Shown here: piece after piece, positions 1,446-62,362 of the stretch | Layout of the letters: every line of letters begins with the position of its first letter | Position numbering within the stretch: position 1 is the stretch's first letter | Source of the DNA: Selaginella moellendorffii | Lineage: Eukaryota > Plantae > Lycopodiophyta | Assembly: GCF_000143415.4 (NCBI RefSeq) | Contig: NW_003314264.1 | Location: 2,055,710-2,119,709 of the forward strand | Direction: 5' to 3' | Length of the DNA stretch: 64,000 bases | The notes under the pieces: generated by a model | What the model was told of the DNA's origin: nothing | The model's input: only the letters and a program-made list of their open reading frames with translations | The model's database searches: none | Program-made: the position numbers and the translations under genes

Positions 1446-4400
1446 TGTCGCAAATGTGACTTCAGGTATCGAAAGTTACCTGTCAGCTAGTCCTTACGGA
1501 CACTCTTACCTTACTGCCACAATGGCAGGAGGTCGGTATTGCTAGTTCCCTTTATTAGCCCCTCTTATTCAAGTGTTAGTTTACTGGGCTTAGCACCTGT
1601 ACTTAGCTAGATGGACATAAGGTAGGAACTCCTACGTGTTATTAGCTAAGCATACTTAGCCCGGTAAGGAGTTCCCGTCTCATTATGTCTTGCACTGGCT
1701 AGTGACAAGAACCCTCGTGTATTGAGATTGGTCCCTTAATATCGCTGGATGATAGCTTACCGTGTCTGCCAAACACCCTCACTATCATGCCCTTTGTGTT
1801 AGTCTCATTTCGGTCCCAAATGCTATTCATTGAAAGTGTCTAGATTCGCTCATTTGGCATATCTACAGAATGTAGAGATCGGCCTGAACACAATGGTGTT
1901 CGTCCCGTGTCCAAATTCGCAATCTAGGAACATTCCATATTTAGTAAGTTTCGAGCTTGTCCCAGAGACTAACTCCTGATACTAAGGGAGGCTTGGGGTG
2001 AAAGCCCAAAGCGTGTGTTCCTCAAAGGGCGGGGGGGGGGGGCTATGGGGGGTTCCAAATGTATAGTAGGGATAGTGGGTAGGTCGGGCATGGCCGACCA
2101 ACCTGAGGCATAGTCTAGCTCCCGCTTGCGTGCCTGTCCTTGTTCTGCGTCCAGCTTGGGTCTAAGCCCAAGTTCCATTCCATGCTAGCTAGTGGAGTAC
2201 CCATGTCCTCACGTTAGGCCACCGGTATGCCGAAATAGCGCCAGACTCCGTTTGGCTCCGTTTTACGTGCTGGTCCTGGCATTAGGATGTTGGTTGCTCC
2301 AGGACTGTTCCAAGTCGCTCTAGGCTCCTGTCCCTTCGCTCCTTGGGCTGTATGCTCGAGAGTTGCTCTGTGGTTCGGTTCCGTCACTCCTTGGCTCCAA
2401 GTTTGGGAGTTTGGCACCGTCCCTTTGTTCAGTGGCCCAAAGTCTTGAAACTCGGGTTTCGCACCACTATCCTTTGGACACGTGGCATGTGACATGTGGC
2501 ATCTGTCACGTGGCACAAAGAGGGTTTAGGTTCCGCTTCATGGTATGGTAAATCACCATAGGATAAAGGGTAAAAACCATGTGCACTACATTTGGTATCA
2601 GAGAATGAGTCTCGGCTAGTACTATCCAATGAGATTGGGCAACTAGTCTCATTGCATACGCAGAGATGAAAACGATGATCTGAGTGGGTACACGTTTGGG
2701 TGCAAAGGGTTTGCAATTGGTTCCTTGGGTATGGATATTATTACCTTGTTGTACCCTATGATGTGAGTTTGCGCTTGGGCTCATAGGATGGTTTGGAGAT
2801 GTTCCGTTTGCATGAGTTTGAGCTTGGGTTCGTGAGTGAGGCGCATTAGCAACTCGAGGTTACATTTTGAGTTGGCAAGATTAATGTTAGCCTATCGGTG
2901 GTTCCATGAGTTGTTCCTTGTACCATGGGTGAAAGCAAACCTTCCTTGGTTTGCTATGAGTGGCAAATAGGCTGGTCTGTAGCTTTTTAGCATAGCACTA
3001 GTGGATCCTTCCTAGGCATGATTATGAGTGGATCAATCAAGACTATAGGGATTAGTCTATTGGTTCAAGTAATCATTGCCGTGCTCTCTCATAAACTTTT
3101 CTTGGATTGAACTGAAGGCAGTGCGAACTCAAGCTTAAGGTTTAGTCAAGATGAAACCGAAAAGAGAGTTCTTAGGGACGAAGGATCAAACACGTAAATC
3201 ATTTTCTCTTCTTGGAGAAATAATTTGCAATGGAGTGTGACTCATTGCTCGTGTTCACGGTATGCAATCAAGAGTCCCTATCTTGATGCATATTGGACGT
3301 GATGGTCTTACAAGTGGTGAGTCGTGGGATGGATAGTAGTGAAGCGTTATACCATTTTGTCGAGGCTTGCTATTGTAAGACTTGGGTTGTAATGCTCAAT
3401 TCTTTTCCGGGGAACCTTGCTATTGCTCCTTGAGTAGCTTGGTGTTGGATTATTTTTGAGTTTGGTCGGAAAGAGAGTGGCATGAGCTTGACTGTTGTGA
3501 ACAAAAGTTAGTGGTGTTTAGTGTTGTAAATCTCTATTGGTGGAGTGTGGCATTTATGTTGCATTTTGTCGAATCGAGTTGACACTTGATACTCATATAA
3601 ACTTTTGAAGTAATTATATAGGCATTGCTCGTGGTGTTGCTCAATTGATGATCAAGTCATTGTGATGCTTATATCATATCCATGTGATAATGAGTAATGC
3701 ATTTACAAAGTTGCTTGGTTAAATGATGATCAACCCCAAGGTGGTTGATGGTGAAGCTAGTCTACTTGCATATAGTAGCATTGTAGTAGCCTTGACTAGA
3801 TTCTTGTTGGTTGTTCATTATGCTAAGCTTAAGTTGGTACCTTGTTTCCTTGAGTTTGCTCATAAGGTGTTGGAAAAGAGTTGTAGCATTCATTTTCTAT
3901 AGCTCGTCAATTGATCTGTTAGCACTTGGAATAGATTGTTAGATGGAGAAAATGTGTAATTGGGGCATTGACATCACTAGTACTTGTGCTAGTGGAGATG
4001 ACATTGTTATGTTGAGTGACAAGGAGCTTTTTCTTAAGCTTGATTTTTCATGTCATTTTTCTTGTTAGTGTTTTGGCTTCACATTGGATCTTAAAGGTGA
4101 TTGAAGAAGAGTGTTAGTGCAATATAGATATCCGAAGATGTGGTCTTTGTGATCAAGCCTTGGATGTTCATTTTGCGCTTTGCAGATGTCGGTGTTGGAT
4201 GTCGGAAAAATGGGCAAAAATGTTCGATGCTTAAGCATATTGTTGGATCATGAGAATTTGTGTCGAGGTGAACCTATGTGAAGTTGTTTGTAGGAGGAAG
4301 TTGGTTAAGTCTTGAAAGTTTGCAATCCTAGATTGAGAGTCATTCTTTCTCTAGGATGGAAATTTTCCACAAATTTTCTTAAACTTCTCCAATGGCTGAT

Positions 4401-7400
4401 CTGTTGATCACTTTGCCGAAAACCATTCTGTTTTCGGAAGCCAGTACAAACTAGTGAAGGGGTTGGAGTTGATTTCGGTTAGCTTAGACCTTGGTAAATA
4501 GTTTGTATGATGCGACCCGAAAGGGATGCTGACTTTTGGGGTTAAGGCAATTGAGTTGGATAGAGTCTGGAGTTGGTGTAGAAAAGTGGCCATTGCACTT
4601 TTCTAAGAAAGGTGACCTTTGTGCCTTTCTTTTGTAGTGTTGTGCTTGGTGGTAGGTTTCACCTTGCATTTCATTAGACTCTATAAGAGTAGTGAGCTCT
4701 CACTGATCTTGACTTGGTCTTGGTGGCCCTGTGCCTTGGCTAAGGATGGTGATGTCCAACTTAGTTGTTTGAGGTTGAGATGTTGGTACCCATACTATAG
4801 CTTTGTCAATAAGGAGGTTGTGTACCGACATGAGTCTATCTCATGGTCTTCACTTTAGTTTTGACTGAGTGTTGATCGCATAGCTAGCCTATTCAAGGCA
4901 TGCTCAGAGCTAGTGGCTAAATGTTTTAGTAAGTTTATTACGGTTGAATTGGATTCGAGTGGTCATTTAGTTTGTGCTTGTTTATGAACTTTTATCTCAT
5001 ACCTGGGGTATCACGTTCATGTTGGACAAGTATATAACTTGATGATAAGAGTTGGTGTTTGGGTCTTGTGACGGCAAGTTGAAGAGTGATTATTGGTTAC
5101 TTTGCGACTAGTGGTTACTTATAGACTTCGTCAAGGACTGTTGACACTTGCTTTGCTCGATGATGATTTAGCAGTGATGGGCTTGCTTTACTAGATGGTG
5201 TTGTGGAGGATCATGTCGTTAGACTTACATAGTTTTTCCAAGTTGACATGTCGACTCTACCTCTATCGATATCATTTGGTTACATTTAGTCCGTAGTGTT
5301 GGATTTCATTAAGTCTTGGACGTGGTGAATCACTCCATGATGATCTGTTCTCTGTTACTGAGTATTGTTAGAGGATTGGTCTCGGATACTAAGTAAAGTA
5401 TCTTTGACCTTGGTTAGCTTAGTTGCTAGGAAGTTTTGAGTGATGATTCACTCGTGCTTTCTTCTAGCTTTGTTATGGTGTTGATGGCATTGAAGTGATG
5501 CCTTATCGTTGATATTATTGATGTTGAGATTTGAGTGAAATGAAATGTCTCTCTGATGATTGATATTGAGTTTCATTGGTCTTGATAAAGATAGTGTTGA
5601 TGATTTGGCTTTAGCTTTGTATTGTTGGCATTCGTGCATTTGCTAGTTAGCAACTGTATTAACGTTTAAATGAACTAAGTGGCAAGTTTGAGTTAGTTGT
5701 GTTCTAGACGAGCTTGTTTAGTAGAGGTTGTGCTTTAGCTTTTCCTTGAAAAGTGATTTAGTCATGGACTAAGCTAACTTTACAAAAATAAGAGTTAGTG
5801 ATTAATATTAAAATGTTGAGTCCTTATTGGATTTGAGTTTGGGATATATCGATCATTGATGATTCTCTTTGTGCTTGTTATGAAGTGAGTTACGTCTTGC
5901 TGTAGATGGATTCATGGAGGATTGTTTAGTGATCACTTGTTGAGCATCGCTTTATTATGCTTAGCTTTTGGATTGATGCAAATATGCTCTTCATTAGCTT
6001 TGGAATTATGAAGTTTAGTTTATGGATGTGTTGAGGACGATATTATGGGTTGCACCATGATTTCTTCTTTAGCATTGAAGTTAGCTTTTATGAGACTCGT
6101 GATTATTAGTAGGCAAGACTTGGCTATAGGCTTCTTCGAGCTTTTGGTTCCTTGAGTTTTGTGCTCATTGTTCCATTTGTTAGAAGTTGTTGGGGAAGGC
6201 ATTTTGTCTCATTAGCTTCGATGTTGAAGTTGGCTTTTGCATCTAGCCATCATTGGTGATGATTGACTATCATTTAGGATAGTTGATTATCCTTGTCGAA
6301 GGTTTTGCTTGATTATTATTGATCTAGAATGATTTGCCATTTTTCGGGATGGTGGATTCTTTCTTCGATGACGATTATGCATTTCTCTATTGATGGGATG
6401 ATTGATGATCTTTCATGATGATTAATTGTTTTCTTTGATGGCTAATGGCTTTTTGCAATACCACATGTTCTTTGTGGTTTGCTCTAGATTGGTCTCTTGG
6501 GTTTGAGACATCGATAGGACGTTGCTGACACTTACTTAAGCAACTCTGGTTCCTTGGTATTATTGACCGGGATCTATTTAGATTAACTTATGCGATGGTT
6601 GGCATGACTAAGTGTTTGTTGGTCTTACCACATTCATTCTGTTTTGTTGATTGTTGCTCGAGTTAGTCCTGATAGATTAGGATGTTGTTTCCTTCGGGTG
6701 ATACATTCGTGAGCATTTTTCTTACCCATCAATGATACTCAGTGTTCTTTATCTTTCGTAAGTTGTTTAGCATACTATCTACAATCTTCGGTGGTTAAGT
6801 TTTATCATTAAGTTTCCTTGATGATATCCTTGCTATTGAATTTTGTAGATGGTAAATCCTATGTTTTCTAATGCTAGTGAGCTTGGTGGTTCCTATCCTG
6901 TAATACTAGTTTATCGGATGATAACTTACTTGGAATACTTTTGTGTTCTAATCTAAGCTTTATTCACTGATAATTCAATCTCTAAGATATCATTGTCTAT
7001 GACTTTGATATTGTCCATCTATTAATCTTTGAGTTTGGGCGAGTATAGGCAGACTGGCTTCGGCACTTCGTGTGCATGCTGAAATCTCTAGTCATGGGGT
7101 AGCTATTGTCGACTGGTCACATAACCCGCCTCTCTGTCGATGTTCCTTCTTCGTTGAAAGGGCGTGACCGTGTAAACAACTCTCACTACCTGTTTATAGT
7201 AGTCTATCTAAACCTTACCGACGGGTTTGGTTTCTTTGCTCAGGAGGGTTGGGGCCTTTAGCTTCTCTCTCTATGTTCTTGCGGGTAGGGGCATATCACA
7301 CTTTTGTAAGCTGGGTGACTCCCAGAGCAGCAAGGGTGGCTGACTCCGTTAGTCATTTCCTTGTCAGCAACGGCCGGAAGGTGTCTGAATTGGTAGCGCA

Positions 7401-8180
7401 TCCGCATTAGACAAAGAAGTTGGCCCATAACTCATTTAAGTTGGTGCATTTCTCACATAGTGTGAATTCTGTGAACTTTTTCTGGAGTTGTTTCCTTAGT
7501 GGTATTCTAGACTCAAGTGTGCATCGACGAGAACGTCGATCTTCCCTAGGGGGGGAGAGTGTCGCAAATGTGACATCGGGTATCAAAAGTTACCTGTCAG
7601 CTAGTCCTTACAGACACTCTTACCTTACTGCCACGATGGCAGGAGGTTGGTATTGCTAGTTCCCTTTATTAGCCCCTCTTGTTCAAGTGTTAGTTTACTA
7701 AGCTTAGCACCTGTACTTAGCCAGATGGACATAAGGTAGGAACTCCTACGTGTTATTAGCTAAGTATACTTAGCCCGGTAAGGAGTACCCATGTCCTCAC
7801 GTTAGGCCACCGGTATGCCGAAATAGCGCCAGACTCCGTTTGGCTCCGTTTTACGTGCTGGTCCTGGCATTAGGATGTTGGTTGCTCCAGGACTGTTCCA
7901 AGTCGCTCTGGGCTCCTGTCCCTTCGCTCCTTGGGCTGTATGCTCGAGAGTTGCTCCGTGGTTCGGTTCCGTCACTCCTTGGCTCCAAGTTTGGGAGTTT
8001 GGCACCGTCCCTTCGTTCAGTGGCCCAAAGCCCTGAAACTCGGGTTCCGCACCACTGTCCTTTGGACACGTAGCATGTGACACGTGGCATCTGTCACGTG
8101 GCACAAAGAAGGTTCCGCTTCGTGGTGTTATCCTATGGTAAATCACCATAGGATAAAGGGTAAAAACCACGTGCACTACA
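1446..8180 (+). mobile_element. Full-length but coding-dead LTR retroelement C1 (superfamily not assignable; 3' end looks gypsy-like)
   Basis: LTRs 1446-2590 and 7560-8180 (TGTCGC...CACTACA). Perfect TSD CCGGG at 1441-1445 and 8181-8185. PBS TGGTATCAGAG at 2593-2603. PPT AGGGGGGGAGAG at 7548-7559. The 5-kb interior has no long ORF. Confidence 0.9.
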
Positions 8181-9697: not shown

Positions 9698-11299
9698 AGG
9701 GTGAAAGCCCAAAGCGTTTGTCTCCCAGACCCTGGGGGGTTTGGTGAGCTCCAAAAGTATAGTGAGGGGGAGGACTGCAGTGGAGCCAGTTTGGCCAGGA
9801 AAGGCCAGTTTGGCCCAAGAAGGCCAGACCCAGTGTTGGGTGATGAACTGACCACTGGGAAGTCCAAGACTAGAGTGAATATGGACCAACAAGCGGGGTA
9901 GCTTGGTGAAGTGTTCAAGAGCCAGCTCTAGTTCCCCCGGGAGATCGACTGGCCAATGCTCCCAGTCCAAGTGTGGGTGGCACTACCTACTTGGATACCA
10001 GGCGTGGCTCAACGGAACCTCGCTCTAAGCCCATGGCTAGAGCACCTAAAGGCGGAAGGCAGGAGAGTACCCATGTGTAAGCCACAAATTTTTCCTTTTC
10101 AATTTGCCAGCTTACCTCGCCTATCCGACCAACTCTGCCTTGGCTTGTGCTAAGTTCCCTCGCCAAGGTTCTCGCCTATGGTGCCAGCTCCTACTTGGTT
10201 TCAGCTACTTACTGCATGAGCAACGGAGTGTTAGCCATCCATCTACGGATTCCCAAATCTTTCCCAATCCCCCTCCCCGGGTTAGATTGGACTTAAGGTT
10301 CGGCTACACTCCCCGCAGGCACAAACAGCTAAGCACACCAAGCCTCCAGATTCCTAACACCCCAAGGTACCACAAGGCTTGATCATGGGACCCTCTAAAT
10401 CCCAAGCCTTGGGTGCAGCACTTGCTTCGGGACGTCGGGGCGAAACACCGTGGCCTAACGGCCCGGTATGGGTACCTCTACCCCCCCACTTTCATCCCGA
10501 AGGGAAGGCCCAAGCCCCCGGAAGGGCGAGGACCAATGAGCCACAAGGTACTCAAGTGGGGCACCACTCCACCTGAGCCGGGAACACCGCAGTCGGTTTC
10601 CCTTTCGGGAGTGGGAGCTGCTCTTGAGCACTTCCTTGGATGGCCCCTCCGGCACCAGCCAAGTCCATGCTCACTCCCACCCAAGGCCCCTCGGTCCCAG
10701 TCCCAACCTCAAGTCGGTTTGGAAGCCCAACTGGAGAGTCCCTTCTAAACTGGTTCCTGGACCTCACTATCCCTACTATACTTTTGGAACCCCCTGCAGC
10801 CCCCCCCCCCTGGGAGACACACGCTTTGGGCTTTCACCCCTTGACCCGTATTAGTATTTGGACTTAGTCTCTGGCTCGATCTCAGACCCGATTTCGGATC
10901 CGACTTCGGATTTGGTTTCGGACTCGATCTCGGACTCGATCTCGGACCCGATCTCGGGTCTGACCTCGGACTCGATCTCGGACTCGGTCTCGGACCCGAT
11001 TTCGGATCTCGGACTCCGTCTCGAACTCGGTCTCGAACTCGGACTCGAACTCGGTCCCCGAGTCGGTCTTGGACTCGATTCCGGACCCTATCTCGAACTC
11101 GGTCCTAGAGTCGGTCTTGGACTCGATCCTCGACTTGGTCCCATCCGATGAACTCTTTGTCATTTCGGTCAAGCTTTTGGGGATCCTTTAGCCTACGACA
11201 TCTCGGGGAGTCGGTTCTTTACAACTCCACCACCCATAGAAGAAGTTCGATGCCCACATCGAACGTCTCGTTTTATCCTACGACTTGTTGACCATGTCT

Positions 11300-11540
11300 C
11301 CGAGGGCATCCCCCCACTTAACGGTATGCCTAAGTTAGCCTCCCCGGCCAAGAGCCCATGACAACGGAATATAGGTGTCCCTATACTCCTCACCTCACCA
11401 CGCCCTAGTATGGGGTCGGGACTTGAACCCAGCCTTGCTTTACTAGGGGGTTGGGACTCGAACCCAACCTCCGTAGAATACGTCTACGGATTCGACATCC
11501 CCGCGGGGAGTCGGGCGTAGTGCCCTACGCCTGGTCGACC
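11300..11540 (-). ncRNA. Putative structured cis-acting RNA element (multi-hairpin, two T-loop/B-box motifs) in the B1 3' UTR
   Basis: Hairpins GGCGTAG/CTACGCC, TCCGTAGA/TCTACGGA and GGTTGGG-TTCGAGT-CCCAACC. Homologous segments with compensatory changes occur in A1, A2 and B2. Confidence 0.55.
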
Positions 11541-12008
11541 TATCCAACCCATGCTAATTAGCTTACCTTTGGCGCGCCTTCGGGTCCCAACATATTGCAC
11601 TTGCTCAACTTTGCAAATTGATATTTTTAATTGAATTTTGCATAAGTACATAGAGTTCTGCCTTGCAGAAATTCCTCCACTAGTTCTCGAGCGTTCGCTA
11701 GGTTCTCCTCCGGTTCCCATGTTGCTTCGCAATGTGGAAATCCTTTCCACTTCACATGGAACTCTCTCACCTCGCGTCCTTGTCGCTTGCTCTTGCGCGC
11801 ATTGAGGATGGCCTCGACTTCGTATTCCTCTTCCCCTTGGATAACCTCAGGTAAAGGTCTCACTTGGTCCTTGCGAAGCGGATCCTCAAAATACGGCTTG
11901 AGTAAGTTCACGTGGAACACTGGGTGCATCTTCCCCATCTCTCGAGGAAGTCGGAGTCGGTAAGCCACTTTACCGATTCGTGCCTCAATTTCATAAGGCC
12001 CCGTGAAC

Positions 12009-12060
12009 CTGCTTAAGGAACTCAAGATCAATTCATTTACAGGAATACATGCATCTTTAC
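12009..12060 (-). other. Putative spliceosomal intron 2 in integrase (52 nt)
   Basis: AG|GTAAAG...TTAAGCAG|G. Removal gives ...RKLTQRFTGPY.... Confidence 0.85.
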
Positions 12061-12478
12061 CTTTGGGTCAACTTTCGGCTGATCCCACTTGGTAGTCTGA
12101 GGTTCTTGGTGTTCAGCCACACCTTCTCCCCAGCTTGGAACTCCACATCCCGACGCTTTTGGTTCGCGTACTTAGTTTGCCTTTGTTGAGCCCGTTCCAA
12201 GGAATCCCTCACTAGATTCCAAATGTTGAGTCTTTCCGCCGTGAATGCCTCCACTGCGGGTAACTCTCCATGATACTCGGCCACGCCGAGTTCCACAGGA
12301 CCTTCAATAGCTCGCCCATTGATGACTTCCCATGGACTCACCCCGATGCTTGCATGTGGTGAGTTGTTATAACACATTTCCGCAAGTCCCAAATGACTTA
12401 CCCAGTCGGTCTGGTCTCCCGAGACATAGCATTGCAATTAATCCTCCAGCTGCCTATTCACCCTTTCCGTTTGTCCGT

Positions 12479-12524
12479 CTGTCAAGAAGTGTTAGTGCCA
12501 ACAACTTGACTTAATACCTCATAC
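12479..12524 (-). other. Putative spliceosomal intron 1 in integrase (46 nt)
   Basis: G|GTATGA...CACTAAC...TTGACAG|AC. Removal gives the canonical ...HPQTDGQTE.... Confidence 0.85.
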
Positions 12525-15500
12525 CTGTCTGTGGGTGATAGGCTGTGCTGAATTTCAACTTGGTGCGATACTGTTCCAGGAGAGTCCTCCAGAACCTACT
12601 GGTGAAGATCTTATCTCGATATGAGATGATCTCTTCTGGTCTTCCCCGCACTCGAACCACTTGTTCGAAGAACAGCTTCGCCACACCTTCCGCATCCACT
12701 TCCGTTGTGGTGGCTATGAAATGTGCCATTTTCGAAAATCGGTCCACCACCACGAATATCGCATCAAACCCCTTGCTTGGGGGGAGTCCCGTGATGAAGT
12801 CCATCGTAAGACATTTCCACGGGCGATCTGGAATGGGGATGCTTTGCAACAAGCCCCCACTAGCCTCAGTCACGGCTTTTACCTGCTGACATGTTGGGCA
12901 TGTCTTTACATAGTCTTGGACGTCCTTAGCCATATCTGGCCAATGGTACTTCCTTTTGAGTAAGCCCATTGTCTTGGGCACTCTGCCGTGTCCCGCAAGA
13001 GGTCCGTCATGACACTCTTCTAAGGCCACCTTCCTTAGTTCCCCTTCTGGAACATACACCCTCGTTTGCTTGTAATAAATGAGTCCGTTGCGTTCCGCAT
13101 AGCCCGTTTTCTCTTCCGTTGGCAGCTCATCTCTCTGGTGAGCTTCTCGCGCCTCTAGATTCCTCAGAAACACTTCCTGTGCTAGACCATCGTTCTCATA
13201 TGCTGTCCGCACATCGTCCCAGAAGGTTGCTGTTGCGCTGGATATTGCCAACCTCAAGCTCACTTTTCGACTTAGCGCATCTGCCACGATGTTGCTCTTC
13301 CCAGGCTTGTACAGAATTTCGCAATCAAACTCGGCCAAGGCATTGGCCCACCGACCTTGTTTCCCTCTTAGGTCAGGCTGTGACAAGAAGTGTTTCGTTG
13401 CCACATTGTCCGTGTAAACCTTGAAGTGTCTCCCAAGGTAGTGTCGCCACTCCTTGAGCACCTTGACCACCGCAAACAATTCCTTCTCGTGGGCAGGCCA
13501 CTTCCGTTGAGCCTTGTCCAGCTTCTTCGAGAAGAACGCTACTGGATGGTTGTCTTGCTTCAAAACTGCGCCCAACGCAAAGTCCGAAGCATCCGTTTCT
13601 ACCTCAAAGTCCTTACCAAAGTCTGGTAATGCCAATATGGGAGCCTTCCTCAACTTCCCTTTGAGGTGGACGAATGCCGCCTCGCATTCCGCTGTCCACA
13701 CCATCTTCCCTTTTCCTGTTTGGTCCGTTAAGGGCAGGGCTACTCTCGAATAGTGTCTGATAAACTTTCGATAGTAGTTGCAAAGCCCCAGGAATGCCCT
13801 CAACTCATGTACATTGGCTGGTCGCTCCCATTCCTGGATCGCTTGGACCTTCTACGGGTCCACCTTGAGCCCATCCTGGCCCACCACATGCCCGAGAAAC
13901 TTTACCTCTTGTTGAGCAAAGTCACATTTGCTCTCTTTAGCATACAGCTTGTGTTCCCTTAGTTTCTCAAACACCTTCGCCAAGTGTTCGGCATGCTCCT
14001 CTAGCGTTTCGCTATAGATCAGGATGTCGTCGATATAGACGACCACGAAGTGATCCAGATAGGGTACAAAGATGTGGTTCATTAGCGCCGAAAACGTTGC
14101 CGGCGCATTACATAGCCCGAAGGGCATCACCAGAAACTCAAAGCTCCCATACCTCGTTCGACAGGTTGTCTTCTCGACATCTTCCTCGGCTACCCTGATC
14201 TGGTAGTATTCTGACCTTAGGTCAATCCTCGAGAAGTATTTTGCCTTTCCCAACCTATCGAACAGGTCCTCAATCCTTGGCAAAGGGTACTTGTTCTTCT
14301 TTGTATACTTGTTGAGCAACCGGTAGTCTATGCACATGCGCATAGATCCATCTTTCTTTTTCACAAATAACACCGGTGCCCCATACGGCGACTTGCTCAA
14401 CCTAACATACCCTTTGTCCACCAACTCCTCTAGTTGGCACTTGAGCTCCTTGAGTTCTTTTTCGTTCAAACGATAAGGGGGACGAACCACTGCCTCAGCA
14501 CCCTCGACCAGCTCAATCTTATGTTCTATCGGTCGTGCTGGGGGTAGCCCCGCCGGTAGCTCTTCCGGCATGGTATCCTGGAATTGGTCCAACACCCGCT
14601 GGATCACTAAAGGTACTTCTTCCATTTCTGTCTTTTTGTCACTCTTCACCGAGAGTAAGCACAAAAAGGCCGCCTTAGTTCCTTTAGTGAGTTGTCCTCT
14701 CGTTGACACCAGGTTTAAGCAAGAATCTTTGGCCTTGCTTTGCCCTACCTTTAGATCTTGGGCCTCCACCCTAGATCTTCTTCTTTGGGCATTCGCCAGT
14801 ACCACAAGGTTTCTACCTTGACCATGCAGGGCTACCACGAATCGATTGAACCAGTCCATTCCGAAGATCACATCAAATCCCGCCATGTCCAACACGGTGA
14901 AATCCATGTCCACCTTCCAAGTCCCCACTTCGACTCTCGCTTGTCGAAGTACCTCATCGGTGCTTTGGCTACCTTGAACAAACTCTATAGTCCTTGGTTC
15001 ACCTAGCCGCTGCACCGTTAGTCCGGCTTGCCGGACTATGTTTGCAGCCACAAAATTATCCGAAGCACCCGTGTCAATAAGAATCTTAACAAAGCTACCT
15101 CCGAGCTTCCCTCGGAGGGCTAGTAGATGTTGCGAACGACTCTCTAACAAAGTTGCTCGTGTAATGAGTAACTTTGAGTTAGGGACTGGATCACATACCT
15201 CATTTTGGACTTCACCCGACTTGATGGCCATATTGGCTCTGGCCTTCTTCGGGTAGGGACTTTCCCTCGAGAAGTGTCCCGCTTCACCGCAGTTGTAGCA
15301 TACGTTGTTTCCCACGCTGCTATATGACTTGACCTTCTTATCCGTGGGTTTGTCTCTTTTTGCTTGACTCCCCCACGTACTCGCTCGCTGGCCCCCGGAT
15401 TTGCCTTTCCGGAACCCCGAGGACTCATTCTTAGAGAAACTCCTCTTGAATTTCCCTCTGCTAAACGTTCCCCTTGGTTTGGCCCCTTTGCTGAACGTGG

Positions 15501-18500
15501 ATCCCGACCCCGTCGTGTTCCCCTTTCGCAAGTTATCGTTGAAATGCACCTTGATGGCTGCATCCAACGCTTCCTTGTAGTTGGTCGGGTTCCACCGCAT
15601 TACTTCGCCGCGAGCCCAGGTTTGCAAACCTGATATGAAGGCATGGAACGCATCCATATCCCCCATGTCCGTGACAAGTATCCTCTTTGCCATAAACCCA
15701 TTCACATACTCCTGAATGGTTCCGGTCTGCTTCAGCCTACTCAGCTTGTCCCTTAGGTGCAGAGTAGCATTCGGAGGAACGTAAGTTGCGCGGATCCTCG
15801 CCTTCATCATTTCCCAAGTGGCCACCGGTCCTTCGTTGGCCTCCGTTGTTCTCCACCAAGACTTGGCATTATCTGCCAAGTATGGTTTTGCACATGGGAC
15901 CTTTTTCGAGCTCGGTAATCGCAACGCTCGGAAGTAGTCCTCCATATCGTAAAACCAATCCTCCACCACCTTATAGTCGTTCACTCCCTTGAAGACCGGT
16001 GGGGGCTTTGGTTTGTACTTGGGAACTGCCTGAGGGACTGATTCCACTTCGGTCTGTTCGACCTTGTCTGGTTTTGCCTCAGTCCCTGCCGAAGGGTCCG
16101 TACCTTCTGCGCTGCCAGCATCCGCAGTCTTTCGCTTTTTCTTCTGCTTCTCGTCACGCTTTAGCTTGCGTATGAGAGTCTCTAGCAAGGCATTGGTCTG
16201 TGCCAATTGTCCTTCTAGAACATCCAATCGAGCCTTGGACGACCGAACCTCACCACCAGACTCCTGTTTGGAAGTTGCCTCACTGGAGTCCTCCTCATGC
16301 AAGGATTCCTCATCCATCGCCTCCTGTTCGACCGGGGGCTCCAGCTCTGGAGGAGGTTCCGTCTCTGCCTGGGTTCGCTTACGTCCTGCCCTTGCCATCT
16401 CCCAGCAATCCGCCTCTATCCTTCGCTAGAACTGAGGAAGAGGCTCCGATACCAAATTGTAAGCCACAAATTTTTCCTTTTCAATTTGCCAGCTTACCTC
16501 GCCTATCCGACCAACTCTGCCTTGGCTTGTGCTAAGTTCCCTCGCCAAGGTTCTCGCCTATGGTGCCAGCTCCTACTTGGTTTCAGCTACTTACTGCATG
16601 AGCAACGGAGTGTTAGCCATCCATCTACGGATTCCCAAATCTCTCCCAATCCCCCTCCCCGGGTTAGACTGGACTTAAGGTTCGGCTACACTCCCCGCAG
16701 GCACAAACAGCCAAGCACACCAAGCCTCCAGATTCCTAACACCCCAAGGTACCACAAGGCTTGATCATGGGACCCTCTAAATCCCAAGCCTTGGGTGCAG
16801 CACTTGCTTCGGGACGTCGGGGTGAAACACCGTGGCCTAACGGCCCGGTATGGGTACCTCTACCCCCCCACTTTCATCCCGAAGGGAAGGCCCAAGCCCC
16901 CGGAAGGGCGAGGACCAATGAGCCACAAGGTACTCAAGTGGGGCACCACTCCACCTGAGCCGGGAGCACCGCAGTCGGTTTCCCTTTCGGGAGTGGGAGC
17001 TGCTCTTGAGCACTTCCTTGGATGGCCCCTCCGGCACCAGCCAAGTCCATGCTCACTCCCACCCAAGGCCCCTCGGTCCCAGTCCCAACCTCAAGTCGGT
17101 TTGGAAGCCCAACTGGAGAGTCCCTTCTAAACTGGTTCCTGGACCTCACTATCCCTACTATACTTTTGGAACCCCCTGCAGCCCCCCCCCCCTGGGAGAC
17201 GCACGCTTTGGGCTTTCACCCCTTGACCCGTATTAGTATTTGGACTTAGTCTCTGGCTCGATCTCGGACCCGATTTCGGATCCGACTTCGGATTTGGTTT
17301 CGGACTCGATCTCGGACTCGATCTCGGACCCGATCTCGGGTCCGACCTCGGACTCGATCTCGGACCCGATTTTGGATCTCGGACTCCGTCTCGAACTCGG
17401 TCTCGAACTCGGACTCGAACTCGGTCCCCGAGTCGGTCTTGGACTCGATTCCGGACCCTATCTCGAACTCGGTCCTAGAGTCGGTCTTGGACTCGATCCT
17501 CGACTTGGTCCCATCCGATGAACTCTTTGTCATTTCGGTCAAGCTTTTGGGGATCCTTTAGCCTACGACATCTCGGGGAGTCGGTTCCTTACACCATGGG
17601 GCTCGCGTAGGCCCACGGTGTTTCGAAATGTTGTCCCGGAGTCCCAAATGGAGAAAGGAGGAAGAGCAATCCTCTAGTGTGGTGACTAAGGATACAGTCA
17701 CATGGTAAGAAAGTCCCGGAGGACCATGGGACTTAGTGGTCGGGCCTGTGGGCCTTGATCTAGTGGCAGTGGCGGTGAACATGGCCATGGACAAAAAAGG
17801 GACTTGGTAGGAACTGACAAAGGGATATTGGGGAAGGCTATTCCCCATGTCTGTGGGCATCCTAAGGATGCTAAGGAGTGGATCTGGGTTGACCACTCAT
17901 GGATGGATGGCCCAGTTTTGGAGAGACGGGATTGTGATGCAAGTGGTATTGGACCACTAGTGTGGCAAAGGTGAATGGGTATGGCCTTAGCGTAACAGGT
18001 TGCTATGTCGGTGATATCTTTGAGTGTCGGTCATGGGATCGGACACGTGGAGCACTTGGACCAAGTGCAAGGGTTGAGTGGCGGGGATGCCATCCTCAGG
18101 GCTAGCAAGCCCAAGTCTGAAAAAGGACTTATGGAGGTTGTGAGTGAGACTCCTCCAAGTGGTCAGAGGTGTGGTTAAGTGACTAAAGTAGAATGGAAAA
18201 ATTAATCGCTTACAATTTGGTATCAGAGTTGTTCATTAGTTCGACTTTTATTGGTGCTCAAATATATTACCATCGATATTGGCATCAGAAGGTCCTAGGA
18301 GTGGGCCTATCCTTGAGGAGTAGCATGTCAAGAGGATATGGCTCTCCACTCAAGTTCATGCGTGAACTTGGGCGCGATGTGGTGGATAGAAAAGGGGCCA
18401 TTAAGGGAACGACTTTGGGATCTTGGGAACAGTATAAGGGTTTCCTCAGAGAGTTGAGGAGTTGATCTAGATGAGTGTTTGACTTAGCAAACTGGCTGAT

Positions 18501-20714
18501 ATAGTTGTGGTAAACAATTACAGTTGGGATCACGGGAAAGATGCGGACTCTAGAACAATAAAGGAGTCACAAGATTACCCTTATATAGTTGAGGCTGGTA
18601 CTCATAAAATTGAGACCAGAATTAATGACTGTGAAATGTCAAATACGGATGAGGACACGAGTCCTTGAAATGGTGGTTGGGGCTACCTTTAAATAAATGC
18701 TGGAACAACCCAAGGAGTTAGGGGTGTACTTAAAGATGAGTTGCTATTCTCATCACATGGACAAATAGTTCTAAGGGGCAAAGGTTAGCCCCAAGAAAAT
18801 CATCAAGTGTCGGAGTAACACTTGCAAAGATTGTCCTTGTGAGTAGGATATGAATACAAGAAGTTGTATTTTAGCGAGTTGGCACCTTGAAGACTAAGAC
18901 CTCGCAAGTTGTTGGATTAGCAAAGTCCAAAATGCTAAATGACTCAAGTGGAGTCAGGGAATGGTCCTAAGGGATTGGTTGAAGCATTTGGACTGAGGTG
19001 TATGGTGCCTCATGAGGTATGGGGAGGATCATAAGATCCAAGTACGAGAACAGTAGATATCTCATTGATGGCAAAATGTGCCATACCAAAGTTGTGGGAA
19101 AGATGTTCCTAGAAGAAAGCAACTTTGGCCTAGAGTTGGGTGCAAACACTATGGTGCGATGCTAATGGATAGTTAGCATAAGGAACAACCATATTGGTCT
19201 TGGCAAAGACCTAAACACTAAAAATAATGTCATAAGGATAGGCTCGTGGGGCCAATGGTGTAGAGACACCAAATGTGCCAAGGTGAGATACCTTGAGGTT
19301 ATGTTGATGGGTTCATAAGAACCCCTTGCCAAGACAATCCCAACGGAAATGGGAATGGCATAGCCTAAGCTGGAAGGCATGCGGTTAGAGTGTGGTGACC
19401 CAAATAATGATGGAGGTATGGAAGCACCAGCAATGAGTTGTAGAACTTGATAACTATGAGGCAACTAAGCAAAAGGTGCGAAATAATTAGTTAAATTGGT
19501 AGAAGGTAACTACCTATGACTTCTTATGCCGATAAGGAAGTTAGATATACCCTTATGGGGGAGAAATTGCTTACGTTGTGAAATAGTAAGTCAATGTCGT
19601 AAAGGGAATGCTCATTGTCAAAGAAGGCCATCATTGGGACACCCAGACACTCTAAAACACGCATGGAATGTGAAGTGTTTAGTGTCGCATTCAATGCGAA
19701 CCGGGCCCGGTCGCACAGGGCATTGTAAGCGACTAATTTTTCCATTCTACTTTAGTCACTTAACCACACCTTCGACCGCTTGGAGGAGTCTCATTCACAA
19801 CCTCCTTAAGTCCAATTCAGGACTTGGGGCTTGCTAGCCCAAGAATGGCATCCATGCCACTCATCGCTTGCACTTAGTCCAAGTGCTCCACGTGTCCGGT
19901 CCCAAGACCGACACCCAAAGGCACCACTGACATATCGGCCCATTACGCTAAGGCCATGCCCATTCACCTTTGCTGCACTAGTGGTCCAATACCACTTGCA
20001 TCACAATCCCGTCTCTCCAAAACTGGGCCATCCGTCCACGAGTGGTCAACCCAGATCCACTCCTTAGCATCCTTAGGATGCCCACAGACATGGGGAATAG
20101 CCTTCCCCAATATCCCTTTATCAGTTCCTACCAAGTCCCTTTTCTGTCCATGGCCATGTTCGCGAACACTACCACTCGATCAAGGCCCACAGGCCCGACC
20201 ACTAAGTCCCATGGTCCTCCGGGACTTCCTCACCATGTGACTGTATCCTTAGTCACCACACTAGAGGACTGCTCTTCCTCCTTTCTCCATTTGGGACTCC
20301 GGGACAACATTTCGAAACACCGTGGGCCTACGCGAGCCCCATGGGTACTCTCCCGCCTTCCGCCTTTAGGTGCTCTAGCCATGGGCTTAGAGCGAGGTTC
20401 CGTTGAGCCACGCCTGGTATCCAAGTAGTGCCACCCACACTTGGACTGGGAGCATCGGCCAGTCGATCTCCCGGGGGAACTAGAGCTGGCTCTTGAACAC
20501 TTCACCAAGCTACCCCGCTTGTCGGTCCGTATTCACTCTAATCTTGGACTTCCTAGTGGTCAGTTCATCACCCAACACTGGGTCTGGCCTTCCTGGGCCA
20601 AACTGGCCTTTCTTGGCCAAACTGGCTCCACTGCAGTCCTCCCCCTTACTATACTTTTGGAGCTCACCAAACCCCCCAGGGTCTGGGAGACTAACGCTTT
20701 GAGCTTTCACCCTC

Positions 20715-21390
20715 TCAGACTCGAACTTGGACTCAGACTCGGACTTGAACTCGGACTCGGACTCGGACTCAGACTCGGACTCAGACTCGGACTCGGGCTC
20801 GGGCTCGGTCTCAGCCTTGGCCTCGGTCTCGGTCTCGGTCCCAATCCCGGTCTCGGTCTCGGTCCCGGTCTCGGTCCCGGTCTCGGTCTCGACCTCGGAC
20901 TCCATCTCGAGTCCTTCTCGGACTCCATCTCGGACTCCATCTCGGACTCCGTCTCGGTCCATCTCAGACTCCATCTCGGACTCCATCTCGGACTCCATCT
21001 CGGACTCCATCTCAGACTCCATCTCGGACTCCATCTCGGACTCTGTCTCGGTCCATCTCGGACTCCATCTCGGGTCCATACTCGGACTCCGTCTCGGTCC
21101 ACCTCGGACTCCATCTCGGACTCCATCTCGGACTCCATCTCGGGTCCATCTCGGACTCCATCTTGGACTCCATCTCGGGTCCATCTCGGACTTCGTCTCG
21201 GTCCACCTCGGACTCCACTTCGGGTCCATCTCGGACTCCATATCGGACTCCATCTCGGACTCCACTTCGGGTCCATCTCGAACTCCATATCGGACTCCAT
21301 CTCGGACTCCACTTCGGACTCTATATCGGACTCCACTTCGGGTCCATCTTGGACTCCAACTAGGGTCCGCCTCGGACTCCATCTCGGACA
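20715..21390 (-). repeat. Expanded tandem array in the A2 3' LTR
   Basis: GGACTC/GGTCTC 6-mers and GGACTCCATCTC 12-mers. Confidence 0.9.
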
Positions 21391-23024
21391 CTTCCACGTA
21401 TCATGTGTTGGTCCTTTTTGGGTCCCTTTTTGGAGCCTTGCTTATTGCTCGCTTCATGCTCGCTCCTTGAGCACTTTGTTGGGAGTTCCACTCCCGCTCT
21501 TGACCTTCCAAGTCAGAGCTTTTAGTCCAAACGTGTTACACTCGTTTGGGCTTTCGCTTCGGCCACTACCACGTGGCACCCTTTCTGGCTCCACTTTGGG
21601 GCCTAGGGATTTTGTGTTTCACAACTCCACCACCCATAGACGAAGTTCGATGTCCTCATCGAACGGTAAACCATTTTATAAAGTAGCACCCGCATATGTC
21701 ACCATTTCCATCCTTGGCCCCTAGCCAATATTTGTCAATGGTTGGACATTGAAGGCTCACCATGCCTTCTCCATATTCATTAATGGTTCGACACCAAAGG
21801 CTCACCATGCCTTGCCCATCCTCTAAGGAGGATAGTCTCTCCAACTTAGAGACTCACTTGACCACCTGGGGTGGTTTGCTCCTTTTTATCGGTTTAGTTC
21901 TCGCTAAACCCATTAGAGACACCCTCTCTAACTCAATTCCACTACTCATTCTTGAGTAGTCACAGATTCCATTAATCTGCCTTTGCACTTTGGAATGTTT
22001 ACTCTTGACTTTTTGGAGTCAATTTCCTAGGTGTCTCCGACACCTTGCCTTGCACATTTTGTGCAACTCCACTTCCCCTCCTAGAAAGTTCTCTACTCTA
22101 GGGCACCCTCATCCTCCTTTCTATTTTTGGGCCACCATTAGCATTACGTTCCATTTATCATTATTTGTGCTAGGGCTGTCCACAGCTCTATCTTTTGGCT
22201 ACTTAGTTGCTCCCTCACTTGGAACCTTTCCTTTGCCAAATTGGAGCACTTGGGAATCCATCCTTGGAAGTCCACTTCTTTTTCCGCAATCCGTTAGCAT
22301 CAAACACATTAGTGTTCCTTGGCTAACTTTGCCACTTGGATTCTTTTCAATGGATTCCACGGCCCTATCTTGGGCACTCGTCTTTTGCTCCTATCCTTGG
22401 ATTGTTGCACCAAGCAACATAGGATCATTACCTCCTTCCTTGAGGTATTCTTTTGGTTCCATAGCAAAGGATCTGCTTTGCCCAGACTAGGGTGTTCACC
22501 CCTAGTAAGTCTCCCCACTGTTCTAGGCTCTCTTCCTAGCCCAACCTTGTGACCCACCCATGGGCCTGTCTCTAGAGACTATTTTCTTGAACTCATAATA
22601 CCATTGTATTGTAGTAGTTCATTTCCCTTAGGTGTCCTTCTCACTTAGTCACCTTGACCAAGCCACACCTTTATCAATAGTTCAAATCAACACTTTGAAT
22701 TAGGAATCATATTCCTTAAACCAAACAAAGACTTTGTCTTTGTTTAACCACAAGATCACCTAGTGATCTCATCTTGACCCCTTAATAGGTCTATCAATAG
22801 GAACTAGGTCTTCCAAACCCTTCTAAGTTGTTGACTATGACCCTGGGGGCATCCCCCACACTTGGCGGTGCGCCCAAGCCAGCCCTTCCGGCCAAGGATC
22901 CATAGCAATTGAGACTTTAGTGTCCCCATTTCATTCACCACGTTCTTGGTGCCCTTTGCACCAAAGTGTTCAAGTTAGATATGCCGAGCTTTCACTCTAA
23001 GCAATCTAACCGTGCATCACGACT

Positions 23025-23250
23025 CCGAGGCATCCCCCGTTTGGCGGTGTGCCCAAGCCAATCTCCTCATTGAGAGTCCATGACCACCGAAATATGAGTG
23101 TCCTCATATTCCAAACCATCACCACGCCCTAGTGATTTGGGACTCGAACCCAAGCACTAGAGGGTTGGGACTCGAACCCAACCTCCGTATATGCATCTAC
23201 GGATGGCATCCCCTAGGATGCCTGGCGTGACTCTCCACGCCGGTGCACCA
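23025..23250 (-). ncRNA. Structured T-loop element, A2 copy
   Basis: Two GGGTTCGAGTCCC hairpins plus GGCGTG/CACGCC, GGCATCC/GGATGCC and TCCGTA/TACGGA stems. Confidence 0.55.
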
Positions 23251-26200: not shown

Positions 26201-26719
26201 CACTAAGTCCCATGGTCCTCCGGGACTTCCTCACCATGTGACTGTATCCTTAGTCACCACACTAGAGGACTGCTCTTCCTCCTTTCTCCATTTGGGACTC
26301 CGGGACAACATTTCGAAACACCGTGGGCCTACGCGAGCCCCGTGGGTACTCTCCCGCCTTCCGCCTTTAGGTGCTCTAGCCATGGGCTTAGAGCGAGGTT
26401 CCGTTGAGCCACGCCTGGTATCCAAATAGGTAGTGCCACCCACACTTGGACTGGGAGCATCGGCCAGTCGATCTCCCGGGGGAACTAGAGCCGGCTCTTG
26501 AACACTTCACCAAGCTACCCCGCTTGTCGGTCCGTATTCACTCTAGTCTTGGACTTCCCAGTGGTCAGTTCATCACCCAACACTGGGTTTGGCCTTCCTG
26601 GGCCAAACTGGCCTTTCCTGGCCAAACTGGCTCCACTGCAGTCCTCCCCCTTACTATACTTTTGGAGCTCACCAAACCCCCTAGGGTCTGGGAGACGAAC
26701 ACTTTGGGCTTTCACCCTC

Positions 26720-27298
26720 TCAGACTCGAACTCGGACTCGGACTCGGACTCAGACTCGGACTCGGACTCGGACTCGGACTCGGACTCAGACTCAGACTCG
26801 GACTCGGGCTCGGGCTCGGTCTCAGCCTTGGCCTTGGTCTCGGTCTCGGTCCCGGTCCCGGTCTCGGTCTCAGTCCCGGTCCCGGTCTCGGTCTCGATCC
26901 CGGTCTCGGTCTCGGTCTTGATCTCGGTCCCGGTCTCGGTCTCGACATCGGACTCCATCTTGAGTCCTTCTCGGACTCCATCTTGGACTCCATCTTGGAC
27001 TCCGTCTCGGTCCATCTAGGACTCCATCTCGGACTCCGTCTCGGTCCGTCTTAGACTCCATCTCGGGTCCATCTTGGACTCCGTCTCGGTCCACCTCGGA
27101 CTCCATCTCGGACTCCATCTCGTGTGCATCTCAGACTCCATCTCGGACTCCATCTCGGGTCCATCTCGGACTCCGTCTTGGTCCACCTCGGACTCCACTT
27201 CGGGTCCATCTCGGACTCCATATCGGACTCCATCTCGGACTCCACTTTGGGTCCATCTCGGACTCCAACTAGGGTCCGCCTCGGACTCCATCTCGGAC
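26720..27298 (-). repeat. Tandem array in the A2 5' LTR
   Basis: Same units as the partner LTR with a different copy number. Confidence 0.9.
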
Positions 27299-28522
27299 AC
27301 TTCCACGTATCATGTGTTGGTCCTTTTTGGGTCCCTTTTTGGAGCCTTGCTTATTGCTCACTTCGTGCTCGCTCCTTGAGCACTTTGTTGGGAGTTCCAC
27401 TCCCGCTCTCGACCTTCCAAGTCAAAGCTTTTAGTCCAAACGTGTTACACTCGTTTGGGCTTTCGCTTCGGCCACTACCACGTGGCACCCTTTCTGGCTC
27501 CACTTTGGGGCCTAGGGATTTTGTGTCTCACAAGCATTAGATAAGGCCCAAGGGACTATGTCCCTAACGAATGATGGATAGGAGGTGCTATCCAAATGTC
27601 CAAGGTTCTGAAGATGGGAGAAATCTGTCTACCCGATTTGGACATAGCCAAAAATGGGATTTTGGCAAGGCTAGTGATAGGCATATAGAGGCCCATAAGT
27701 AGCAACATAAATCCCGATGTATGGGATTATAAGGTGAGCATGCTCAAATTAAGGAACCACTCCCTAAGTTATTGGGTAAGTTCATCCTTATGAATACTTG
27801 CTAAGGCATAGTAAAAGGTGCAAAGCTGTCCTCCTAGTCTGGAGGAGAATAACCAAGGGAAACATATAAGGCCAAAGGGCAAGTAGTATTGGGATGGAAC
27901 GGAACCATAGAAATTTAAGGACATAACCAACGGTGGTTATGCAAGTTGGGAGTGGAGAATCAAGAGAGTGCTCAAGGATGTTACTACTAGCAATTGCAAT
28001 GCCATGGAGAGTCTAAAATATGGAATTACCCATGTTAGACCATGTGGTGAGTAGGGAGCTTGCAAAGGAGAAGCCTTAGCAAGCTAAGGAACAGAATTCC
28101 TTGAAGGTTCCCAAAGACAGATAAGTACATAGAAAGCCAAGTGTAAATGGTTCCTAGAGCACGCGAAATCAGAGTGGCGCAGCAAAAGCGTGGTCTTGAT
28201 GCTGGCCATGAGGCGAGACTATCAAGGTTGGGGAAGTAGTTCCCTAGTGTTCAAAGAGAGGGCTTTGAATGAAAGTTGATGATTAAGGACTTTCACGCTT
28301 ATGCATAAACCATGTTATGATGGCCGGATGACTTGCTAAGTGAGATTGGCAAGTTAGGGGAACAAATCCCCTAGTTGAAGGTGCTAACTTCAAAGGGGTG
28401 GCCCATGGGGCCGAGCATGGAGGAGTCCATGCATGATCACAGACTTGTCATGTGAGAGGACTTGGCAGTGCGGAGGAACTAGGTTCCTAAGCTGTGATCT
28501 ATAGCACACTTTAAGTACATGT

Positions 28523-30806: not shown

Positions 30807-30837
<31 letters not shown>

Positions 30838-39916: not shown

Positions 39917-42442
39917 GAAGAGATCATCTCAGATCGAGATAAGATCTTCACCAGTAGGTTCTGAAGGACTCTCCTGGAATAGTATCGCACCAAGTTGAAA
40001 TTCCGCACAACCTATCACCCACAAACAGGTATTAGGTATTAAGTCAAGTTTGATGGCACTAACACTTCTTGACAGACGGACAAACGGAAAGGGTGAATAG
40101 GCAGCTGGAGGATTATTTGTGATGCTATGTCTCGGGAGATCAGACCGATTGGGTAAGTCATTTAGGACTTGCGGAAATGTGTTATAACAACTCACCACAT
40201 TCGAGTATCGGGGTGAGTCCATGGGAAGTCATCAATGGGTGAGCTATTGAAGGTCCTGTGGAACTCGGCGTGGCCGAGTATCATGGAGAGCTACCCGTAG
40301 TGGAGGCGGCGGAAAGACTCAACATTTGGAATCTAGTGAGGGATTCCTTGGAACGGGCTTAACAAAGGCAAATCAAGTATGCGAACCAGAAGCGCTGAGA
40401 TGTAGAGTTCCAAGTTGGGGAGAAGGTGTGGCTGAACACCAAGGACCTCAGGCTACCAAGTGGGATCAGCCGAAAGTTGACCCATGTATTCTTGTAAATG
40501 AATTGATCTTGAGTTCCTTAAGCAAGTTCGCGGGGCCTTACGAGATTGAGGCACGAATCGGTAAAGTGGCTTACCATCTCCGACTTCCTCGAGAGATGGG
40601 GAAGATGCACCTAGTGTTCCACGTGAACTTACTCAAGCCGTACTTTGAGCATCCACTTCGCAAGGACCAAGTAAGACCTTTACATGAGGTTATCCAAGGG
40701 GAAGAGGAATACGAAGTCGAGGCCATCCTCAATGTGCGCAAGAGCAAGTGACAAGGACACAAGGTGAGAGAGTTCCATGTGAAGTGGAAAGGATTTTCAC
40801 ACTGCGAAGCAACATCGGAACCGAAGGAGAACCTAGCGAATGCGCGAGATCTAGTGGAGGAATTTCTGCAAGGCAGAACTCTATGTACTTATGCAAAGTT
40901 CAATTAAAGTATCAATTTGCAAAGTTGAGCAGTGGCATATGTTGGGACCCGAAGGCGCGCCGAAGGTAAGCTAATTAGCATGGGTTGGATAGGTCGACCA
41001 GGCATAGGGCACTATGCTCGACTCCCCGCGGGGATGTCAAATCCGTAGACGTATTCTACGAAGGTTGGGTTCGAGTCCCAACCCCCTAGTAAAGCAAGGC
41101 TGGGTTCAAGTCCCGACCCCATACTAGGGTGTGGTGAGGAGAGGGGTATAGGGACACTTATATTCCGTTGTCATGGGCTCTTAGCTGGGGAGGCTAACTT
41201 AGGCACACTGCTAAGTGGGGGGATGCCCCCGGAGACATGGTCAACAAGTTGTAGGATAAAAAGAGATGTTCGATGTGGGCATCAAACTTCTTCTATGGGT
41301 GGTGGAGTTGTAAGGAACCGACTCCCCGAGATGTTGTAGGCTAAAGGATTTCCGAAAGCATGACCAAAATAACAAAGAGTTCATCGGATGGGACCGAGTC
41401 AAAGATCGAGTCCAAGACCGACTCTGAGACCGAGTTCGAGATAGAGTCCGGGATCGAGCTGAGGCCGAATTGGAGACCGAGATCGAGACCGAGTTTGAGA
41501 CCGAGTTCGAGACAGAGTCCGAGATCCAAATCGGGTCCGAGACCGAGTCTGAGGTCGAGTCCGAAGTTGAGTCCGAGATCGAGTCCGATATCAAGTCTGA
41601 GACCAAGTCCGAAGTCGGGTCCGAGATCGAATCTGAGACTAAGTCCAAATACTAATACGGGTCAAGGGGTGAAAGCCCAAAGCTTGAGTCCCCCCGGGGG
41701 GGGGGGGCTGCAGGGGGTTCCAAAAGTATAATAGGGATAATGAGGTCCAGGAACTAGTCTTGAAGGAACTCTCCAGTGGTGCTTCTAAAATGACTTAAGG
41801 TTGAGACTGGGGCCGAGGGGCCTTGGGTGGGAGTGAGCATGGGCTTGTGTGGTGCCGGAGGGGCCACTCAGGGAAGTGCTCAAGAGCAGCTCCCACTCCC
41901 AAAAGGGAAACCGACTACGGTACTCCCAGCTCATGTGGAGTGGTGCCCCACTTGAGTACCTTGTGGCTCATTGGTCCTCGCCCTTCCTAGGGGCTTGGGC
42001 CTTCCCTTCAAGATGGAAGTGGAAGGGTAGAGGTACCCATATCAGGCCGTTAGGCCACGGTGTTTTGCCCCAATATCCCGAAGCAAGTGTTGCACCCAAA
42101 GCTTGGGATTTAGAGGGTCCCATGATCAAGTCTTATTGTACCAAGGGGTGTTAGGAACCTGGAGGCTTGGTGTGCTTATCTGCTTGTGCCTGTGGGGAGT
42201 GTAGCCGAACCTTAAATCCAGTCTAACCCGGGGAGGGGGATTGGGAGAGATTTGGGAATCCGTGGATGGATGGCTAACGCTCCGTTGCTCGTGCAGTGAG
42301 TAGCTGAAACCAAGTAGGACCAAGTAGGAGCTGGTACAATAGGCGGGGACCTTGGCAAGGGAATTTAGCACAAGCCAAGGCAGTGTTGGTCAGATAGACG
42401 AGGTAAGCTGGCAAATTGGAAAGGAAAAATTTATGGCTTACA
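39917..42442 (+). mobile_element. 5'-truncated second chromovirus B copy (B2): integrase C-half, chromodomain, 3' UTR, PPT and LTR
   Basis: Collinear with the reverse complement of 10076-12635. Intron-1 homologue at 40029-40075. LTR at 41309-42442. Carries frameshifts and stops. Confidence 0.92.
40992..41232 (+). ncRNA. Structured T-loop element, B2 copy
   Basis: GGTTGGGTTCGAGTCCCAACC at 41063-41083 and a second GGGTTCAAGTCCC at 41102-41114. Confidence 0.55.

Positions 42443-60245: not shown

Positions 60246-62362
<2,117 letters not shown>

Follow-up and report, generated by a model that had tools for sequence, protein, structure and literature searches.

The integrase of SM1-Galahad, a Ty3/gypsy chromovirus of Selaginella moellendorffii, is almost certainly interrupted by two genuine spliceosomal introns (I1 and I2) that are really spliced, and a third intron (I0), missed by the initial annotation and newly found here, lies across the primer-binding site (PBS). 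Introns are expected to be purged by reverse transcription, yet this high-copy family retains them while needing two splices inside integrase for the enzyme. It is reasonably probable that the three-intron transcript is split into spliced mRNA, with the full polyprotein and without the PBS, and unspliced, PBS-bearing RNA as the copying template. More tentatively, with slightly less than even confidence, we propose that SM1-Galahad combines an exon-intron catalytic domain with a PBS-deleting 66-nt intron, which would make mRNA and genomic RNA mutually exclusive, have integrase act in trans and shelter gained introns.

The analysed DNA, one stretch of 64,000 nt (the window), contains a full-length copy of the element (B) and a truncated one (B2); the features are collected in the table. 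A Pfam scan of B gave the chromovirus domain order Gag-PR-RT-RH-INT, and the TG..CA ends, target duplication, PBS and PPT-like tract are those of a chromoviral LTR element. A TATA-like motif lies near 17162 within the 5′ LTR, and the PBS motif is one we take to be of the tRNA-Met type. The two LTRs differ by 10 transitions over 1136 aligned sites and one gap (K2P 0.0089), so the insertion is young and arrived with its introns. Assignment of B to SM1-Galahad was made by host and dimensions, not by comparison with the published sequence. The published family is 7.5 kb long, with LTRs >1 kb, a poly-G of 11-25 and a 13-bp Met PBS, and has an ORF1 of 3885 bp (1295 aa) that lacks a chromodomain, together with two additional ORFs (316 and 309 bp), the 309-bp one encoding a detached chromodomain (PMC3350952; Novikov et al. 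2012). It was placed in the Galadriel clade, and its reconstruction was built from several of hundreds of copies, no intact copy having been found in that study. B thus shares with the published family the host, length, LTRs, poly-G, PBS, ORF1 and 309-bp chromodomain ORF. The unspliced frame of B, from the ATG at 16398 to 12514, measures 3885 nt (1295 aa) and the further ORFs 318 and 309 bp, the latter two counted without stop codons. Because of this near-match in dimensions, the published reconstruction carries both integrase breaks.

Features of the two element copies and of a host gene. Positions count from the first letter of the window.
Feature	Position	Strand	Description
Full-length copy B, assigned to SM1-Galahad	10076..17593	-	7518 bp, defective
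Target duplication CATGG	10071-10075 and 17594-17598		5 bp, flanks of copy B
5′ LTR of B	16458..17593	-	1136 bp, TG..CA, poly-G tract of 11
Leader intron I0	16432..16497	-	66 nt, GT..AG; joint 16431^16498 in one X1 contig
PBS	16442..16454	-	13 nt, presumably initiator tRNA-Met type, within I0
Coding exon 1	12525..16398	-	Gag, CCHC, PR, RT, RNase H, integrase zinc finger and core to HPQT
Stop codon specific to copy B, RT	13852..13854	-	aa 849
Tyr replacing second catalytic Asp	12619..12621	-	aa 1260; Asp in B2 and X1 contig
Intron I1	12479..12524	-	46 nt, GT..AG, phase 1, CTAAC branch A 13 nt from end
Coding exon 2	12061..12478	-	418 nt; catalytic Glu and remaining integrase core
Stop codon specific to copy B, exon 2	12438..12440	-	aa 1305; sense in B2, X1 contig and one X17 read
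Intron I2	12009..12060	-	52 nt, GT..AG, phase 2, directly before GPY/F motif
Coding exon 3	11627..12008	-	GPY/F-SH3 (PF24626), chromodomain (PF00385, E 6e-17), then stop
Purine-rich tract, PPT-like	11225..11237	-	Interrupted by T; precedes 3′ LTR
3′ LTR of B	10076..11223	-	1148 bp; with I0 donor and branch motif, without acceptor
Truncated copy B2	39917..42442	+	Integrase 3′ part and 3′ LTR, about 90% identical overall to B
I1 in B2	40029..40075	+	47 nt; GT, CTAAC, AG kept
I2 remnant in B2	40483..40525	+	43 nt; donor gone in 14-nt deletion, acceptor AG to AA
Host CBL-interacting kinase gene	60246-62359	+	11 introns, exact mapping of S. moellendorffii protein P0121

The analysis of the integrase region showed that I1 interrupts an Asp codon four codons upstream of the catalytic Glu (codon 12467-12465, in D-35-E spacing from the second catalytic position). 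Both I1 and I2 are 3n+1 nt long, carry an in-frame stop and shift the frame. Their removal gives HPQT-DGQTER and KLTQ-RFTGPY and a 1557-codon frame from the ATG that includes D-35-E, GPY/F and the chromodomain, the last standing at the integrase C-terminus in frame with integrase only once spliced. Among homologous polyproteins (120 examined), junction 1 was gap-free in 109 of the 110 that span it and junction 2 in 73 of 94; in a second set of 149 homologs the counts were 113/116 and 80/116, respectively. The two GT..AG inserts, their minus-strand positions, their stops and frame shifts and the motifs restored by excision were thus all recovered as the initial annotation had described them, as was its reading that unspliced RNA encodes Gag-PR-RT-RH and an integrase cut before the catalytic Glu.

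The donors of I0, I1 and I2 each matched 7 of the 9 positions of the donor consensus, a level reached by 24 of the 450 GT sites in the element; the 11 host kinase introns matched 6-8. With GT..AG ends, such donors and lengths of 46, 52 and 66 nt vs 47-89 nt in the host gene (median 66, n = 11; one kinase exon was 100% identical to P0121), all three have the features of U2-type introns. The 47-nt host introns cited earlier fared differently: the one at 61339-61385 (+) was supported by the exact kinase mapping, and the other, at 56643-56689 (+), reads GC..AG and is kept as a candidate. Apart from their own copies, the sequences of I1 and I2 had no match in the window. Repeats of 5 and 4 nt at the I1 and I2 junctions were considered as a clue to origin and set aside, being largely a product of the splice consensus.

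For RNA evidence, four runs (X1, X17, X18 and X19; 23 listed) were aligned to positions 10000-17600. X1 consists of assembled contigs and is, by our guess, likely RNA; X17, from another study, X18 and X19 are raw-RNA runs. One 1083-nt X1 contig skips exactly I1 and I2 (joints 12478^12525 and 12008^12061), the I0 joint is on a different X1 contig, and all joints are GT..AG on the sense strand of the element. One raw RNA read of X17 skips I1, on the strand expected of sense RNA in a stranded library. No splice joint was found in X18 and X19 at their low coding depth, and the three raw-RNA runs, in which coding-region depth per strand stayed below 1.2-fold, contained one spliced read in total. 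Exact removal was therefore seen for I1 in two of the four runs and for I2 and I0 in one of four (X1, likely RNA). The RNA mapping of both junctions for which the initial annotation had called was thereby answered by one X1 contig, and for I1 also by the X17 read; together with the host-like lengths and donor matches, this upholds its view that the inserts are spliceosomal, spliced in at least one family member. The transcribed copy of the 1083-nt contig differs from B at 29 of 1083 letters and hence stems from another locus; it keeps the catalytic Asp and has a sense codon at the position of the exon-2 stop. The raw-RNA runs also contained 118-263 reads on a 34-nt LTR motif (10807-10840) with foreign flanks and a depth of 5-17 reads on a 357-nt LTR piece (16633-16989) with foreign ends, which are transcripts of other loci sharing these LTR parts.

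It is highly improbable that the joined forms of X1 derive from intron-less DNA copies instead of RNA. The RNA status of X1 being a guess, this reading has some basis, but X1 behaves like RNA, since it has zero depth over 17112-17600 and 11016-11523, the LTR 5′ end included, and no intron-containing contig despite hundreds of genomic copies, with the breaks present in the reconstruction. Moreover, a PBS-less copy cannot arise by normal retrotransposition, and X17, whose I1-skipping read has the strand of sense RNA, is recorded as RNA.

The depth of X1 in the four bins overlapping introns (8.44, 8.37, 7.67 and 6.6) agreed with a spliced-only prediction (8.44, 8.37, 7.66 and 6.59) in 4/4 bins, and no unspliced RNA pool was seen, though contigs can drop rare forms. 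Splicing therefore does not look limiting at steady state, contrary to the proposal of the initial annotation that it acts as a switch keeping integrase scarce relative to Gag and RT. We regard such a switch as quite unlikely: in the unspliced RNA a single frame does run from Gag-PR-RT-RH into a catalytically truncated integrase, and Gag:Pol ratios are described as set by splicing in Ogre, EVADE and BARE1, but the breaks of SM1-Galahad do not part Gag from RT, and the spliced-only contigs argue weakly in the same direction. Dose control and PBS loss are compatible, not exclusive.

The locus B itself is dead as judged from its stops at aa 849 and aa 1305 and the Tyr at aa 1260. Thus the claim that doubly spliced mRNA gives active integrase held for the full frame, which is restored, and not for copy B, which would be inactive even when spliced. 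B2 is dead as well, with 4 stops in exon 2. Comparison of these two genomic copies, both in the window and both dead, showed that the I1 splice sites are kept, as had been noted earlier, and that the I2 sites are lost in B2; a minority of intron-less copies may exist in the family. Between B and B2 the introns diverge by a K2P of 0.045-0.049 (I1 0.045 plus one indel) and the exons by 0.056-0.064. Since I1 diverges about as fast as the exons, B2 shows inheritance and was rejected as proof of selection on splice signals. Inheritance of the introns through transposition, the earlier proposal, agrees with the presence of breaks in B, B2 and the published reconstruction.

SM2-Galahad, the closest sister family, has the same domain order and a group I chromodomain, and, unlike SM1-Galahad, an uninterrupted ORF of 1577 aa (PMC3350952), which makes gain of the integrase introns within the SM1 line probable. 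With this intact sister present in hundreds of copies, no intact SM1 copy found in the same study, B and B2 both dead, and non-coding elements with similar LTR ends abundant in the window, SM1-Galahad could be mobilised by SM2-Galahad integrase, the inserts being old lesions that happen to splice. This is very unlikely, given that both cuts are exact to the codon and give back conserved motifs, that the transcribed copy has the catalytic Asp and reads sense where exon 2 of B has its stop, and that GPY/F and the chromodomain are kept in exon 3.

The leader intron I0 comprises the final 40 nt of the 5′ LTR, then a 3-nt spacer and the complete PBS, and stops 33 nt short of the start codon. A CTTAC at the LTR terminus is its candidate branch; the acceptor follows at a distance of 28 nt, with the PBS in between. 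All three LTRs of the family in the window contain the donor and the branch motif; only behind the 5′ LTR is there an acceptor. As I0 lies in the 5′ UTR and contains no ATG, its removal leaves the reading frame unchanged; what it plainly does is delete the PBS and the LTR end. Elsewhere in the window its sequence was matched only by its own copies and by the LTR ends of a related family, family A. Leader folding was not better than that of shuffles (z -0.79), and a structural switch in the leader is not claimed.

RNA without a PBS cannot begin minus-strand synthesis, as established for LTR replication, in which the PBS is required for starting reverse transcription (PMC12786077). I0 thus supplies a reason, absent from the initial annotation, why spliced RNA escapes copying, and PBS loss through I0 is a likely part of the reason that transposition does not purge the introns. 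In the proposed mechanism, fully spliced mRNA would encode the complete 1557-aa Gag-Pol-integrase-chromodomain polyprotein and would not be primable. Unspliced RNA would be primable, with an integrase ending before the catalytic Glu, GPY/F and chromodomain, and is predicted to be the sole template for new copies, passing the introns on, and the spliced pool would be the source of integrase. The leader intron by itself is insufficient, because intron-less copies would result from RNA that had I0 but had lost I1 and I2. That both breaks persist in two copies and in the published reconstruction implies that retention of I0 and of I1/I2 is coupled; PBS-bearing RNA would also keep I1 and I2, either by all-or-none splicing or because the unspliced form is selectively exported or packaged.

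Such coupling could also operate by itself, with the integrase introns real and kept, as in BARE, via a separate unspliced packaging pool marked out by a different start site, a missing cap or Gag binding, and with I0 incidental or serving control of expression, export or polyadenylation. In BARE only RNA that is uncapped, unspliced and made from a TATA box of its own is replicated (PMC3735527), premature polyadenylation in foamy virus is held down by the donor in the LTR (PMC5035957), and the PBS-loss model itself needs a coupling of this kind for I1 and I2. Nevertheless, what I0 takes out is precisely the LTR end plus the PBS, so that copying is blocked under any packaging rule, and no second start site was seen; we consider this explanation unlikely, and PBS removal by I0 is preferred.

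Retroelements that divide their RNA by splicing are already known, among them Ogre, BARE1, EVADE, copia, foamy virus and CaMV; new here are the intron across the PBS and the reading of the integrase breaks of SM1-Galahad as introns of one frame. In Ogre, a plant Ty3/gypsy element, a sense-strand intron needed for the full polyprotein is kept in genomic copies, with one splice between two ORFs (PMC6317226, PMC12786077). B has a different layout, Gag to integrase core being one frame and the introns lying in the integrase and leader. BARE1, EVADE and copia form two RNA pools by splicing, as here (PMC3735527, PMC5580714, PMC12786077), but in them splicing destroys pol, leaving Gag only, and unspliced RNA encodes all, whereas here splicing creates the integrase frame. 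The translated pool of BARE cannot be copied, as is proposed for spliced SM1-Galahad mRNA, its exclusion being achieved via the start site and missing R (PMC3735527) and here via PBS removal. In foamy virus the major donor maps to R within the LTR, and Pol is made from spliced RNA (PMC5035957, PMC7828637); from that donor location, splicing should remove the PBS. In the CaMV 35S RNA, a donor upstream of the PBS yields spliced isoforms without it, which are not reverse transcribed, and PBS-keeping isoforms are, giving intron-less copies (PMC4498817). The foamy virus and CaMV splices are long and skip whole ORFs, whereas the 66-nt intron of SM1-Galahad takes only the LTR end and PBS; also unlike these viruses, SM1-Galahad has two host-sized introns within integrase.

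In the published account of SM1-Galahad the downstream parts are separate ORFs, in contrast to the exons of one 1557-aa frame and the PBS-covering intron described here, and neither 'intron' nor 'splic' occurs in the text of PMC3350952. A 2025 review describes plant LTR elements as generally without introns and names Ogre and EVADE as exceptions (PMC12786077), and the accessible parts of PMC12477816, bioRxiv 2022.06.16.496473, PMC6839031 and PMC2864245 contain nothing on intron-bearing LTR elements. No earlier report of I0, I1 or I2 was found in the openly available literature searched, and an earlier annotation may exist in Repbase, the REXdb sequence files or subscription journals. No spliced member of the family emerged from protein searches: exon 1 gave no Selaginella sequence among the 120 longer-protein matches listed, exon 2 gave 0 matches among 372 candidates, and the best 150 50%-cluster representatives were at most 46% identical, with no close relative among them. 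A metagenome scan gave 11 distant loci, none spanning junction 1 and six spanning junction 2 in one reading frame.

A leader intron that deletes the PBS is a simple and testable way of explaining both the retention of sense-strand introns and the division of RNA between translation and copying, and it reinterprets the published SM1-Galahad family as potentially autonomous. Where genomes have very short introns, families of this kind will be scored as broken in surveys that rely on ORFs. The same leader intron may be present in the related non-coding elements of the window and in chromoviruses of other genomes.

The surroundings of the element are rich in related sequences. B sits inside the 5′ LTR of a family A element, forming a nested stack at 9069-31918, and the same family A element houses a further copy of its family, inverted, at about 19723-27533. 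No match to 120 retroelement proteins was obtained for the interior of family A or of family C (the latter at about 2593-7782), so both look like non-autonomous LARD-type partners; they have a Met-type PBS and similar LTR ends. In family A a candidate GT..AG intron of 71 nt spans the LTR end and PBS of that family, at 25770-25700 (-) and 18169-18239 (+), with putative donors matching 7 and 6 of 9 positions. Arrays of 12-bp degenerate repeats occur in the LTRs of B and of family A (10863-11146, 17245-17516, 20690-21390, 26707-27300 and 30312-30925). A gag fragment at 32758-33087 (+), with 62% protein identity to B, and a degenerate RT fragment directly behind the B2 LTR at 42441-42981 (+) possibly belong to sister families. 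The window further contains an assembly gap of 100 N (57405-57504), a weak NIF-phosphatase-like ORF at 38574-39473 (+) and, at 34072-36666 (+), two adjacent in-frame ORFs of 399 and 464 aa with one stop between them and no Pfam match.
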